Virus record (IMG/VR): IMGVR_UViG_2619619129_000005
Source of the DNA: a virus
Lineage: Duplodnaviria > Heunggongvirae > Uroviricota > Caudoviricetes
Strand: one strand, 5' to 3'
Length of the DNA: 7,307 nt
Below the pieces are notes generated by a model. That model was not told the DNA's origin. It saw only the letters and a list, made by a program, of their open reading frames with translations, and did not search any database. The position numbers and the translations under genes were made by a program. Position 1 is the stretch's first letter; each line of letters opens with the position of its first letter. Below are positions 2,500 through 6,608 of this stretch, piece by piece.

Positions 2500-3576
2500 T
2501 TACCCCCTGAAGCCCGGCGGAATTTCGTTATCCGGTTCAGAAATATGATTCACACAACGCTGGTTGTTCGTGCCGCTTACCGGGAGCAACCAGGGGTTCT
2601 CAAAATTCCGGTCCGGTCCAAAAAACGTCGTCGCTCGCTGAACAAATTCCGTTCCCGTTTTCCCGGTAGCCGCCAAGTATCTTGCGTAACGCCTCACGCC
2701 ATCCAGCATGGCTTCTGGTGGCACCCCCTCGCGTAATCTGGCCTTCCAGGCACTGAAAGCGGATTTCTTCGGGTTTGCTCCGGCACGCAACGGGTACTCC
2801 CGCCAGACCTGTTCGAACACATCCGGATAATCCACTCGTCCCACAGACTGCCCGGTGTTTTCCGGGACTACCCGATCGGCTTCCCGCTGAATGGCGGAAT
2901 CGGCTTCGGGCTGCTGCAGTTGGTGTGATTGCTCCGGCCTTGCGGTCATCACCTGCTGCACAGCGCCCGAATCGGCTTTCAGCGCATACGCTGAATCGGC
3001 TTCCGGTGTCGTGCCTGCTGGCTGACCAAGATTGACGGTCTGAACATCCCCTGCCTGGTTCGTGGCGTTTTTTACGCCATGGACCATAGTGTTTTGATCT
3101 TCTTGATCTGTATCTTTATCTGTATCTTTATCTGTCGTGACTCGTCGTGACATGTGCGTGACATTTCGTGACGCGCCGTGACAATCGCCATTTTGTTCCC
3201 GCTTTCTTTCCCTCTCTCGCTGCGCCCTCTTGCGCTCTGCAGGAGATTTTGCGGTTTGCGAAATATTGCCGTTGTCCTCTTTAAGCACCTGGCGTTTTTC
3301 CCATCCAGTGATTAAATCACCATCAAGTACCCGCCCCTGCATCGTCTGCAAAATTGAATCAATTACCTCTTCTGTCACGTCGAGCGCACTTGCCAAATCT
3401 TCTGTCGTGACATCAATGTGACCTCGCGTGACATTTCGTGACGCGCTCACCAGGAGGTGGATATACACTGCCATCACTGTTGCAATTGGCTGCCCTGACA
3501 CTCTGGCAATTGTTCGCCACTTAGGGTCATTTGGCATGTCATGCCATAATCTGAGCCAGGCGTTAGCCATACTCAC
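2500..3576 (-). CDS. Phage replication initiation / replisome-organizer protein (358 aa, lambda O-like role) with the origin inside its coding sequence
   Basis: ATG at 3576..3574 with GAGGTGA Shine-Dalgarno upstream. N-terminus MSMANAWLRLWHDMPNDPKWRTIARVSG is typical of phage initiator DNA-binding domains. A low-complexity acidic/basic linker (ERKRAQRERERKRE, DKDTDKDTD) is encoded by the tandem repeats and iterons. Sits where O-like genes sit, downstream of the cro/cII-like genes. Confidence 0.75.
   Translation of the reverse strand: MSMANAWLRLWHDMPNDPKWRTIARVSGQPIATVMAVYIHLLVSASRNVTRGHIDVTTEDLASALDVTEEVIDSILQTMQGRVLDGDLITGWEKRQVLKEDNGNISQTAKSPAERKRAQRERERKREQNGDCHGASRNVTHMSRRVTTDKDTDKDTDQEDQNTMVHGVKNATNQAGDVQTVNLGQPAGTTPEADSAYALKADSGAVQQVMTARPEQSHQLQQPEADSAIQREADRVVPENTGQSVGRVDYPDVFEQVWREYPLRAGANPKKSAFSAWKARLREGVPPEAMLDGVRRYARYLAATGKTGTEFVQRATTFFGPDRNFENPWLLPVSGTNNQRCVNHISEPDNEIPPGFRG
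3096..3182. repeat. Candidate origin, cluster 1: 12-bp tandem ATCTGTATCTTT x2.5 (3106..3135) followed by five CGTGAC iterons
   Basis: CGTGAC at 3136, 3146, 3157, 3167 and 3177, spaced 10-11 bp (one helical turn). Immediately preceded by an AT-rich hexamer-periodic tandem repeat. Lies inside the replication-initiator gene, as ori-lambda lies inside O. Confidence 0.6.
3374..3446. repeat. Candidate origin, cluster 2: four (C/T)GTGAC iterons plus one inverted copy
   Basis: CGTGAC at 3406, 3427 and 3437, TGTGAC at 3417, spaced 10-11 bp; inverted GTCACG at 3374..3379. The 21-mer GCGTGACATTTCGTGACGCGC is identical at 3426..3446 and 3156..3176. TCTGTCGTGAC is identical at 3131..3141 and 3401..3411. 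Confidence 0.6.
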
Positions 3577-4067: not shown

Positions 4068-4279
4068 GAATCATTCTTTCCTTCGTTCGAGGTGCTATCC
4101 TGCTTCTTGTAAAGTTCTGGGTTGTATTTCAATTCACCGTTAGTAATTTCATCCAGTTCCATTGCGCGAAGTTTGGGAATAACTGCTTTCCACCGCACAA
4201 CAGCCACATGTGAAATTCCAAGAGCCTCAGCTACTAGTCGCTTTTTTTTGAAATAGCGCAGAACATCATCTTTGAACAT
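4064..4279 (-). CDS. Cro-like HTH protein of the YdaS/DicC family (71 aa)
   Basis: ORF MFKDDVLRYFKKKRLVAEALGISHVAVVRWKAVIPKLRAMELDEITNGELKYNPELYKK... with HTH signature (LGISHVAVVRW). ATG at 4279..4277 with AGGAG (complement of 4286..4290) 6 nt upstream. Divergent from the repressor gene. Confidence 0.8.
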   Translation of the reverse strand: MFKDDVLRYFKKKRLVAEALGISHVAVVRWKAVIPKLRAMELDEITNGELKYNPELYKKQDSTSNEGKNDS

Positions 4280-4370
4280 AAAACTCTCCTGTTATTCCGA
4301 GCAGGAGGGTAACAATAGTTACATAGCAATGTCAACCATAGCAACATCACTTGGTAGTAACATTGGTTAC
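4280..4370. promoter_or_regulatory. Divergent OR-like region with two GTAAC-N4-GTTAC operator palindromes
   Basis: GTAAC-AATA-GTTAC at 4309..4322 and GTAAC-ATTG-GTTAC at 4357..4370, centres 48 bp apart. TTGACA on the minus strand (complement of 4330..4335) is a candidate -35 for the Cro-side promoter. The 91-bp gap between divergent start codons is typical of an immunity switch. Confidence 0.55.
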
Positions 4371-5045
4371 ATGAAAAACACTATCAGCGAACGTATTCGG
4401 AATCGTCGAAAAGACGTTGGATTAACCCAACAGCAGGTTGCGAAAGCAATCGGCATATCTCGTGTATCCGTAACAAAATGGGAAAATGGCTCTTCAAAAC
4501 CTGACGGTGAGAATTTGCATCTACTGTCAAAATTGCTTTCCAAATCTCCTGAATGGATTCTTTATGGAAAGGACGGTCACGATAAAACCGATGATCTGCG
4601 TCTGAATCAGTATCTTTACATTAGTGACAACATCGCCCGGTTGCCCGTTTTAACGTGGGAACAGGCTGGTTATTGGGATATGAGTTGTCCAGTAACCGAG
4701 ATTCCTGGCATTAAGAATTGGGTTGATGTCATGACAAAAACCGCTGAAAACTCTTTTTTATTGCATGTTGAGGGAGATGCGATGACAAACTCTAACGGCC
4801 TCCCAACCATCCCCGATGGATCTACCGTGCTGATCACACCATGCTCAAGTAACATTAGAGAACTGGTGGGAAAAATAATCTTAATCCAATTGGAAGGAAC
4901 GCCAAACGTAACACTAAAAAAAGTTGCGATTGACGGACCAAACATCTATCTGTTGTCACTGAATCCGCTTTACAAACCCATCGAACTGAATGGTGGTTAC
5001 ACCATTAAAGGTAAAGTTTCACAAATACATCAATACTTAGACTGA
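4371..5045 (+). CDS. dicA: Prophage repressor: DicA-like HTH N-domain plus LexA/CI-type S24 C-domain, with Ala at the catalytic Ser position
   Basis: N-terminus MKNTISERIRNRRKDVGLTQQQVAKAIGISRVSVTKWENG resembles DicA as I recall it. C-domain LLHVEGDAMTNSNG...TLKKVA...LNPLYKPIELNGGYTIKGKV aligns by eye with lambda CI (VEGNSMTAPTG...FKKL...LNPQYPMI...VVGKV). Start placed at ATG 4371 so both operators stay intergenic (leaderless, like lambda cI from PRM). Alternative starts: ATG 4329 and TTG 4272 (ORF-track start). The symbol is by family resemblance only; K-12 DicA is shorter and lacks the C-domain. Confidence 0.75.
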   Translation: MKNTISERIRNRRKDVGLTQQQVAKAIGISRVSVTKWENGSSKPDGENLHLLSKLLSKSPEWILYGKDGHDKTDDLRLNQYLYISDNIARLPVLTWEQAGYWDMSCPVTEIPGIKNWVDVMTKTAENSFLLHVEGDAMTNSNGLPTIPDGSTVLITPCSSNIRELVGKIILIQLEGTPNVTLKKVAIDGPNIYLLSLNPLYKPIELNGGYTIKGKVSQIHQYLD

Positions 5046-5632: not shown

Positions 5633-5851
5633 ATGCAGAAACGAGAACCCGTCATCATCGCGCCAGACTATACCGATGATGAACTTTATGAGTGGATGCG
5701 CCAGAAAATTAATGCAGCGCAGGATCTGAAATGGGCTAATGAAGCCAGGGTTAAGCAGGCTGAAAATCTGTCCGCTCTGGAGCAGGATATCACCAATCTG
5801 GAAAAAGCAGCGGCATTAAGCATTGCCAGAATGATTACATACCCGCGTTAA
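5633..5851 (+). CDS. ydfC: Small prophage protein (72 aa), YdfC-like
   Basis: ATG 5633 with GAGGA 6-7 nt upstream; product MQKREPVIIAPDYTDDELYEWMRQKINAAQDLKWANEARVKQAENLSALEQDITNLEKAAALSIARMITYPR. Size and position match K-12 ydfC; symbol by synteny. Confidence 0.65.
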   Translation: MQKREPVIIAPDYTDDELYEWMRQKINAAQDLKWANEARVKQAENLSALEQDITNLEKAAALSIARMITYPR

Positions 5852-6192
5852 TAGATAACCAACGAAGCTAAGGTTGGTAATTAAGGAGTTCTCCACGGGT
5901 GAGGTGGAGTGCGTGCGCCGGACACGGGTGAGCATCCGGCACTGACAGTTTACTGAAAGGATATTTCCCTGAAAAGTCAGACCATAACGCGAAAGCGCAC
6001 GGCGAGGTAGCTGGTTCATAGATAGCCTGTCGTTAAATTTTCGTCGACCGTGCGCTTCCGGTTGTGGCAATCCGCGAAATGGCGCGGCGGTAAGTATGGC
6101 GGGGGTATTCCTTCCCCCGTTGAGGACACCGGGTTGTCAGGTTGACCATACGCTTAAGTGACAACCCCGCTGCAACGCCCTCTGTTATCAAT

Positions 6193-6250
6193 TTTCTGGT
6201 GACGTTTGGCGGTATCAGTTTTACTCCGTGACTGCTCTGCCGCCCTTTTT
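6193..6250 (+). ncRNA. dicF: DicF-like small RNA (about 53 nt) with intrinsic terminator
   Basis: TTTCTGGTGACGTTTGGCGGTATCAGTTTTACTCCGTGACTGCTCTGCCGCCC (6193..6245) followed by TTTTT (6246..6250). GGCGG (6209..6213) pairs with CCGCC (6240..6244). The sequence agrees with my recollection of K-12 DicF and sits in the long gap between ydfC and dicB. Exact 5' end is uncertain because it is made by processing. Confidence 0.6.
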
Positions 6251-6419
6251 AAAGTGAATTTTGTGATGCGGTGAATGCGGCTAAGCGCACGCGGAACAGT
6301 TAAAACCAAAAACAGTGTTATGGGTGGATTCTCTGTATCCGACGTTAATTGTTAACTGGTTAACGTCACCTGGAGGCACCAGGCACTGCATCACAAAATT
6401 CATTGTTGAGGACGCGATA

Positions 6420-6608
6420 ATGAAAACGTTATTACCAAACGTTAATACGTCTGAAGGTTGTTTTGAAATTGGTGTCACTATCAGTAACCCTGTATTTACT
6501 GAAGATGCCATTAACAAGAGAAAACAAGAACGGGAGCTATTAAATAAAATATGCATTGTTTCAATGCTGGCTCGTTTACGTCTAATGCCAAAAGGATGTG
6601 CACAATGA
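6420..6608 (+). CDS. dicB: Cell-division inhibitor DicB (62 aa)
   Basis: Product MKTLLPNVNTSEGCFEIGVTISNPVFTEDAINKRKQERELLNKICIVSMLARLRLMPKGCAQ matches DicB as I recall it. ATG 6420 with GAGGA (6408..6412) 7 nt upstream. The ORF-track version (from 6315) includes an unlikely 5' extension. Confidence 0.85.
   Translation: MKTLLPNVNTSEGCFEIGVTISNPVFTEDAINKRKQERELLNKICIVSMLARLRLMPKGCAQ

Follow-up and report, generated by a model that had tools for sequence, protein, structure and literature searches.

The stretch analysed here, positions 5852-6192 of a 7,307-nucleotide (nt) segment of viral DNA (Caudoviricetes; IMG/VR record IMGVR_UViG_2619619129_000005; the whole segment is referred to as the window), is the non-coding leader of the small RNA (sRNA) DicF in the early-left operon transcript of a Qin-like lambdoid prophage, and it contains a conserved, probably pseudoknotted RNA domain that we term module C. 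The window comprises the immunity and early-left region of this prophage, in the order repressor, ydfA, ydfB, ydfC, leader, DicF, dicB, ydfD, with the leader forming the spacer between ydfC and dicF, and in the best-matching genome the operon runs on into exonuclease, xis, and int. The Qin locus of Escherichia coli K-12 has the same gene order, 96.7% identity over 5821-6060, and a near-identical module C, and the 341-nt stretch is matched in 4324 of 5426 complete E. coli genomes (~80%). The Rfam covariance model for DicF (RF00039) matches at 6194-6245 with 76.7 bits and has no match within 5852-6192; as its sole match lies downstream, the stretch is not DicF itself. The elements of the leader and its 3' neighbourhood are as follows.

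5852-5980, + strand: mosaic hairpins of the 3' untranslated region after the ydfC stop codon (5858-5878, 5917-5940, 5942-5980)
5982-6002 pairing with 6048-6067, + strand: stem U, an interrupted helix of 19 base pairs (bp) with two small internal loops
6061-6176, + strand: module C, a conserved multi-helix RNA domain of 116 nt with a probable pseudoknot
6177-6193, + strand: A/U-rich linker, up to the 5' end that RNase E makes on the 53-nt DicF
6194-6250, + strand: DicF sRNA with intrinsic terminator and U-tail (Rfam RF00039)
6283-6291, + strand: third AAGCGCACG box, complementary to 6049-6057

According to published work, DicF of K-12 is excised from a polycistronic transcript by processing (bioRxiv 10.1101/2023.04.14.536235; PMC5069750). 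A 190-nt species has a 5' end that is made by RNase III and is gone in an rnc mutant (bioRxiv 10.1101/2023.04.14.536235), the 5' end of the 53-nt species needs RNase E (bioRxiv 10.1101/2023.04.14.536235; PMC5069750), and inactivation of RNase E leads to more of the 190-nt form (bioRxiv 10.1101/2023.04.14.536235; PMC9438474). The 190-nt and 53-nt species build up in stationary phase, and a 72-nt form has a 3' end that is made by RNase III. The rnc and rne dependence is published for K-12 only and is applied to the window through homology. This homology, together with a stem of about two helical turns at the right place, supports the window leader as the RNase III/RNase E-processed DicF precursor, that is, the 190-nt species, and agrees with the original prediction, made from the sequence of the window, that the stretch is the precursor from which the sRNA is cut by these two enzymes.

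The stem in question is stem U. The original prediction had pointed out a 10-bp inverted repeat, AAGCGCACGG at 5993-6002 and CCGTGCGCTT at 6048-6057, which is indeed present, is lengthened by a repeat search to 13 nt (5990-6002/6048-6060), and forms the core of stem U. The full duplex has an energy of -30.6 kcal/mol versus -21.8 +/- 2.4 kcal/mol for shuffled arms, and the element 5982-6067, the top of which is a variable 45 nt, folds at a z-score of -3.7. Stem U is found in each of the 123 lambdoid-type copies, which together show 32 different arm pairs and have loops from 34 to 131 nt long, and its arms differ between prophage types yet stay complementary (AAGCGCACGG/CCGUGCGCUU versus GAGAGCAUUG/CAGUGCUCUC), with both-sided changes at six positions (6048, 6049, 6054, 6057, 6059, and 6060). 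Although RNAduplex, used to find the pairs across copies, favours pairing, stem U always occupies the same position and outperforms shuffled arms, which argues against an artefact. Stem U is the likely substrate whose cleavage by RNase III yields the 190-nt DicF. The 5' end of this species, located by its length from the terminator U-run (~6250) rather than by primer extension, falls at about 6059-6061, at the base of stem U.

Two other ideas for this region were considered. A boxA/nut element was suggested by GUGCUCUUU-like strings directly 5' of module C in some types; these strings are base-paired in stem U, and the boxA-like string belongs to that stem and covaries with its partner there. 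The N-like gene that would accompany a lambda-type nut site is neither annotated nor recovered with Pfam. In the variable top of stem U, strings resembling a tRNA T-arm (GGTTCGATTCC, GGGTTCAATTCC) occur in phage F1055 (locus L005) and in Erwinia/Izhakiella types (L043, L046), about 60-120 nt ahead of module C; ARAGORN finds no tRNA, and a tRNA-like nature of the stem-U loops of other types was rejected.

Module C begins where stem U ends. Its alignment consists of 74 distinct variants recovered by pattern scans of one-genome-per-species contigs and viral contigs (E. coli, Shigella, E. albertii, E. ruysiae, Citrobacter, Trabulsiella, Erwinia, Izhakiella, and phages), and the following helices, all on the + strand, were assigned from RNAalifold combined with reading of the alignment.

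6061-6068/6169-6176: helix P1
6072-6076/6083-6087: helix P2
6088-6091/6128-6131: helix P2a
6100-6119: helix P3, a variable hairpin
6132-6139/6159-6166, with inner pairs 6140-6142/6152-6154: helix P4
6094-6099/6146-6151: probable pseudoknot between junction GUAUGG and P4-loop CCAUAC

Across the 74 sequences, pairing extends to 97.6% of the alignment cells of module C, and both partners have changed in 11 pairs, versus 3.7 +/- 1.3 in shuffled alignments (0/500) and 0-3 with slid partners. The support is strongest in helices P4, P1, and P3: five pairs covary in P4 (e.g., GUCA/UGAC, GCCA/UGGC, and AACCA/UGGUU), and P3 occurs in 40 distinct versions, nearly all of them 4-7-bp hairpins with pyrimidine-rich loops. 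P2a shows one compensatory event, UA to CG, in the P7 phage group. For the window copy alone, the minimum-energy fold gives P1, P2, P2a, P3, and P4, with a z-score of -2.4 for the 116-nt domain. The invariant unpaired bases are the junction GGCGCGGCGG and most of AGGUUGACCAUACGCYURAGU; P3, the junction 3' of P3, and both flanks diverge completely. Four G-U pairs of the conserved structure would be A-C mismatches on the - strand, which identifies the + strand as the RNA. Taken together, these comparisons support the view that module C and stem U, as predicted structures, are under selection as RNA. Module C (6061-6176), a conserved domain that folds independently and is likely to be pseudoknotted, makes up the 5' two-thirds of the 190-nt RNA. 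Rfam 15 holds no family for module C even at E<=10; searches at the gathering threshold and at E<=10 returned only DicF, plus a sub-threshold STnc100 match downstream.

Among the smaller observations on this domain, P3 loops such as UUCCUU and UCCUCC in the variants resemble an anti-Shine-Dalgarno sequence, and GTTGAGGAC is present twice, at 6119-6127 in the junction after P3 and at 6405-6413 in the ribosome-binding region of dicB. Pairing of the P3 loop with the junction GAGGA was considered and set aside, as by eye it is not conserved across types.

It could be argued that this conservation reflects a small protein gene or a site at the level of DNA instead of RNA structure. An open reading frame at 6050-6145 (+ strand, 31 codons) matches PHROG 8854 with an E value of 1.6e-18, and several phage and genome records place hypothetical proteins across module C. 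Among close relatives, however, the frame breaks after P3 in all three frames, with early stops, the changes in the helices are compensatory, the G-U pairs are specific to the + strand, and Pfam gives zero matches. Because the frame is not conserved among close relatives, PHROG 8854 and the other gene calls are probably spurious and built over the conserved RNA, and we consider a coding or DNA-level explanation highly improbable. The statement in the original prediction that the stretch has no plausible open reading frame is borne out to the extent that no conserved one exists.

The distribution of module C indicates what it is consistently found with. In BLAST comparisons with phages, conservation is modular, and the most widely common block, query positions 210-333 (window 6061-6184), reaches phages cdtI and 2H10, Salmonella phage F1055, an Actinobacillus phage record, and phages P1/P7. 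A covariance model built from the alignment was run on 100 viral loci and on the complete genomes of phages cdtI and Tritos; each phage or locus gave one copy of module C, and a second, putR-like copy was absent throughout. A hairpin followed by a T-run lies 3' of module C in 85 of 85 distinct downstream contexts, 50-135 nt beyond the P4 loop. As this holds for P1/P7 as well, module C has only one constant neighbour, a terminator-type sRNA cassette in cis. The cassettes contain at least nine different stem-loop sequences, and most are preceded by UUUGG, as in Hfq-type sRNAs. The Rfam DicF model recognizes the E. coli type only, P1 and P7 being without DicF by Rfam, and the Rfam search of the other phage loci returned no family for module C or for the DicF-like variants.

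Several details of individual loci may be recorded here. The DicF-like variants have a common GGCGGUA.. stem and UUUGG prefix with different loops (cdtI, L007, ~2640-2690; F1055, L005, ~2640-2700; and loci L034, L043, L046, and L023). Actinobacillus phage vB_Apl-pPE4 (L004, 2490-2760) carries a module C copy without the 5' strands of helices P1 and P2, and its linker and sRNA cassette are tandemly duplicated after the first terminator; the region is otherwise like an E. coli-type lambdoid early-left operon (DicA, YdaT, Kil, and exonuclease VIII). In cdtI (L007, 40-228, - strand), a C4 antisense RNA (68.4 bits) lies beside isrK (60 bits), near the antirepressor gene.

One way to read this pattern is that module C is a second functional RNA, which, within the 190-nt form or as a ~133-nt remnant of RNase E cleavage, serves as a sponge, decoy, or scaffold by binding a protein or RNA of the host, with the DicF-like cassettes as co-transcribed passengers. 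The junction and loop bases are invariant while the flanks, P3, and the junction that follows it diverge, the P3 loops are always pyrimidine-rich and anti-Shine-Dalgarno-like (UUCCUU, UCCUCC), and processing sites lie on both sides, as for a stable RNA; conservation between the unrelated lambdoid and P1 phages would moreover imply a host partner. However, module C is always accompanied by a terminator cassette downstream, computation points to no partner, and no stable fragment of the region is reported, although the probes used in the published work were directed at DicF only. We regard this explanation as unlikely.

Instead, we favour the view that the leader is a processed RNA in which RNase III cleavage licenses the folding of module C, and in which the folded module C acts in cis on the sRNA cassette to which it is attached. 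Central to this proposal is the segment GUUGUGG (6061-6067), which ends stem U on its 3' side and also provides the 5' strand of helix P1. Its competing partners, CAUAAC/CACAAC upstream and CUGCAAC/CCACAAC downstream, are both kept in every lambdoid type. Since stem U is transcribed first, helix P1 probably forms only after RNase III has cut the base of stem U. During transcription, GUUGUGG would thus be held in stem U; the RNase III cut would free it, helix P1 would close, and module C would fold. RNase E would then cut the linker at ~6193/6194, as published for K-12, and let out the 53-nt sRNA. In the 190-nt intermediate, the folded module C would be the cis-acting body of a 'pro-sRNA': helix P1 would bury the 5'-monophosphate end made by RNase III and bar RNase E from 5' entry, by which means the 190-nt form would persist, and the single-stranded linker would be the sole accessible RNase E site, setting the rate and the precision of sRNA release. 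In a predicted fold of 6059-6250, linker positions 6183-6190 pair weakly with the 5' seed of DicF (6197-6204), and the RNase E site is in the loop; the length and the sequence of the linker differ between prophage types.

We assign this whole explanation, comprising the processed leader, the folding licence, and the cis-acting pro-sRNA body, a probability of roughly 0.5, and we hold its functional part, the cis-acting body as such, more tentatively. Several points weigh against it. A simple cap would have no need of a specific partner, yet one is suggested by the invariant unpaired bases (GGCGCGGCGG and the 19-nt P4 loop), and the argument for a cis role of module C is drawn from its structure and its context. 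The RNase III cut is located by length and not from primer-extension data. The depth of covariation is modest: the pseudoknot has six complementary invariant bases and a single compensatory change (UA to CG, in the P1 phage group) in its favour, and helix P2 shows no covariation and is disrupted in a few copies. Finally, the masking of the seed by the linker is weak (three G-U pairs) and is found in the E. coli type only.

The position of module C within early operons is also what would be expected of a cis-acting antiterminator. HK022, a lambdoid phage without N, carries two folded RNAs, putL and putR, that act in cis in its early operons from positions 5' of terminators (PMC9378689). By analogy, nascent module C would bind the elongating polymerase and allow partial read-through of the DicF terminator, and the polymerase would also escape Rho on the ~570-nt untranslated spacer, to reach dicB, exonuclease, xis, and int or, in phage P1, the tRNA genes and ban. 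Module C is always in a repressor-controlled early operon, 5' of an intrinsic terminator that downstream genes must pass, at a variable distance that suits a polymerase modifier and not an expression platform. No N-like gene is annotated in cdtI or Tritos, and a Pfam search found none in the window; the spacer is G-rich relative to C (C/G 0.63-0.84). In phage P1, the copy lies directly behind the C1-controlled Pban promoter, starting ~30 nt after its -10 element; 3' of it lie a leader that is long and for the most part untranslated, a short terminator, the tRNA genes, and ban. (Between this copy and the tRNA-Asn gene, at 3109-3276 of locus L002, there are also weak tmRNA-like Rfam matches, with E values of 0.01-0.1, far below the gathering threshold.) Yet the put RNAs are ~70 nt long with two stem-loops and occur as paired sites, one per early operon, whereas module C is single-copy with none in the rightward operon, has no similarity to putL/putR in sequence or structure, and gave a blank result when its covariance model was run on the HK022 loci (E<=10). 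Furthermore, in the published K-12 blots, termination at DicF is a major outcome and no full-length transcript was detected (bioRxiv 10.1101/2023.04.14.536235), terminators downstream in phage Tritos are no more numerous than in shuffled sequences, and the Rho-avoiding composition is not distinctive, as neighbouring coding sequence has a similar C/G. An antiterminator is therefore quite unlikely in our estimation.

A compact, covarying, and pseudoknotted fold with conserved junction bases that is followed by an intrinsic terminator and then by a toxic gene also calls to mind a riboswitch-like aptamer or attenuator, in which a ligand or condition would set the efficiency of the DicF terminator and hence expression of toxic DicB. 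DicF levels in K-12 are reported to depend on growth phase (bioRxiv 10.1101/2023.04.14.536235). On the other hand, there is no Rfam riboswitch match, even at E<=10, the spacing between domain and terminator varies widely, with an extra inserted hairpin in Trabulsiella, and the terminator stems of F1055 and P1 differ without matching changes in the invariant domain. Alternative pairing between the 3' arm of the terminator, the only arm covered, and the domain was not significant (z -1.8 to +1.1). Such a switch appears improbable. A broader possibility, which we consider doubtful, is that temperate enterobacterial phages have, in module C, a structured regulatory RNA of a new class, carried also by P1-type plasmid prophages, that binds a host machine or gates by ligand: it would be either a put-independent antiterminator or anti-Rho element, or a gate that chooses between stopping after the sRNA and reading through into dicB/xis/int, with RNase III cleavage as the switch that lets module C fold.

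The favoured reading of module C as a pro-sRNA body leaves aside the region between DicF and dicB, which has structures of its own. The original prediction had noted a direct copy of the AAGCGCACG motif downstream; the copy is present but lies at 6283-6291, one base from the position given (6284-6292), and by our own estimate a 9-mer direct repeat inside ~450 nt is near chance expectation (~0.4 expected). In E. coli-type copies, this third box stands at a fixed +26 nt after the terminator, while other types have AAGAGCATC at +7 or +11 after the terminator, complementary to their own stem-U 3' arm. The position of the resulting long-range helix (6049-6057/6283-6291) is conserved and type-specific, but its energies are no better than those of shuffles (z of about -2 to +1). 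The third box may serve read-through transcripts as an alternative pairing partner, or it may be the relic 5' arm of a lost tandem cassette.

The third box is enclosed by a second stem at 6246-6412 (arms 6255-6273/6384-6402), with 28 bp in the fold and a z-score of -6.6, which begins at the terminator U-tract and whose 3' arm reaches the dicB Shine-Dalgarno sequence GAGGA (6408-6412). This stem agrees with the published finding that RNase III makes the 3' end of the 72-nt DicF, and its processing could be coupled to dicB translation. The sub-threshold STnc100 match in Rfam (6257-6397; 33.5 bits versus a gathering threshold of 47; E 2e-5), to a candidate Hfq-associated sRNA of gammaproteobacteria, also falls inside this stem. 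The 5' seed of DicF, GGTGACGTT (6198-6206), is perfectly complementary to AACGTCACC (6362-6370) in the dicB leader, so that DicF could pair with the read-through RNA of its own operon; a 9-nt match of this kind is about at chance level in 650 nt. The protein-coding genes around the leader are listed here for completeness.

4272-5045, + strand: S24/HTH repressor
before ydfA: P22-type Cro and YdaT, divergent
5633-5851: ydfC, preceded by ydfA and ydfB, upstream of the spacer
6420-6608: dicB, 3' of DicF and followed by ydfD

At the other end of the stretch, the hairpins of 5852-5980 behave differently from stem U and module C. Similarity to other prophages begins at differing breakpoints (5872, 5894, 5912, and 5964/5972), and in other prophage types unrelated hairpins occupy this position. 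Hairpins 5917-5940 and 5942-5980 are kept among close relatives with loop changes only, and this comparison revealed no both-sided pair change in the stems of 5852-5980. These hairpins may form the 3' end of the ydfABC fragment left by RNase III cleavage, a role that fits the published loss of ydfA RNA in the K-12 rnc mutant (bioRxiv 10.1101/2023.04.14.536235). A perfect 10-nt direct repeat, CACGGGTGAG, is present at 5894-5903 and 5923-5932, 29 nt apart, and its second copy (5923-5932) is the loop of hairpin 5917-5940.

These results allow the proposal of a structured region with a function beyond that of a precursor, which the original prediction drew from the amount of conserved-looking structure, to be divided in two. 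A sequence check found its four hairpins all where they had been reported.

5858-5878: hairpin ACCAAC/GTTGGT
5917-5940: hairpin GCCGGA/TCCGGC
6100-6119: hairpin CGGGGG/CCCCCG, equivalent to P3
6131-6167: hairpin GGGTTGTCA/TGACAACCC with a 9-bp stem, corresponding to P4 without its three inner pairs

The latter two are inside the covarying 116-nt domain, which in structural terms bears out 'something more', while 5858-5878 and 5917-5940 are without covariation. As a whole, the 341-nt stretch folds at -128.5 kcal/mol versus -112.7 +/- 4.9 kcal/mol in dinucleotide shuffles (z -3.2; 0/100 as good), and the reverse strand also folds well (z -4.4), as expected for hairpins. The covariation analysis that had been suggested as a check revealed compensatory changes in both stem U and module C. 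Given that covariation is present and that a second stable species (190 nt) is published beside the 53-nt sRNA, the original prediction survives.

The locus and its RNase III/RNase E processing are already known from the dicF locus of K-12 Qin (Faubladier et al. 1990; Ragunathan et al. 2023), which is of the same locus type, with the same gene order and published processing. In the accessible K-12 literature, however, the 5' extension is treated only as a precursor, and no domain, pseudoknot, strand sharing, or DicF-free occurrence is described. The closest counterpart elsewhere is the 'dicF-like region' of phage P1 (NC_005856, 68791-68892) and its P7 equivalent, where a module C with an identical core is followed by a terminator hairpin and shows compensatory changes in helix P1, P4, and the pseudoknot; unlike the window, these copies have no DicF by Rfam and no stem U. 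The GenBank annotation of the P1 region implies that the similarity has been noticed before. Among other known systems, sRNAs from mRNA 3' regions such as MicL, CpxQ, and SroC are likewise released by RNase E together with a terminator and have structure beside the cut (PMC9438474), but module C differs in being a large, sequence-conserved, pseudoknotted domain with a prior obligatory RNase III step and many cassettes. The RNase III stalks of rRNA precursors are likewise long helices at the boundary of a folded RNA that are cut by RNase III; in contrast to one enclosing stalk, stem U and the stem at 6246-6412 are separate local hairpins flanking DicF, and only the weak 9-bp pairing 6049-6057/6283-6291 could enclose it. 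Neither Rfam nor the searchable literature contains the pseudoknotted domain, the strand sharing, or the association with cassettes and phage P1, although earlier notice in older papers is possible.

DicF and DicB are toxic division inhibitors in most E. coli strains, and the post-transcriptional control of their output is only partly understood. The findings reported here imply that the 190-nt 'long DicF' is more than an unprocessed tail, in that it carries a conserved knotted domain common to phage P1 and at least nine DicF-like cassettes. Module C is accordingly a candidate new RNA family. It offers a concrete, mutable element for sRNA maturation or gating and for an RNase III folding switch, and it also bears on whether lambdoid phages that lack N rely on an RNA for reading through the terminator before their excision genes.

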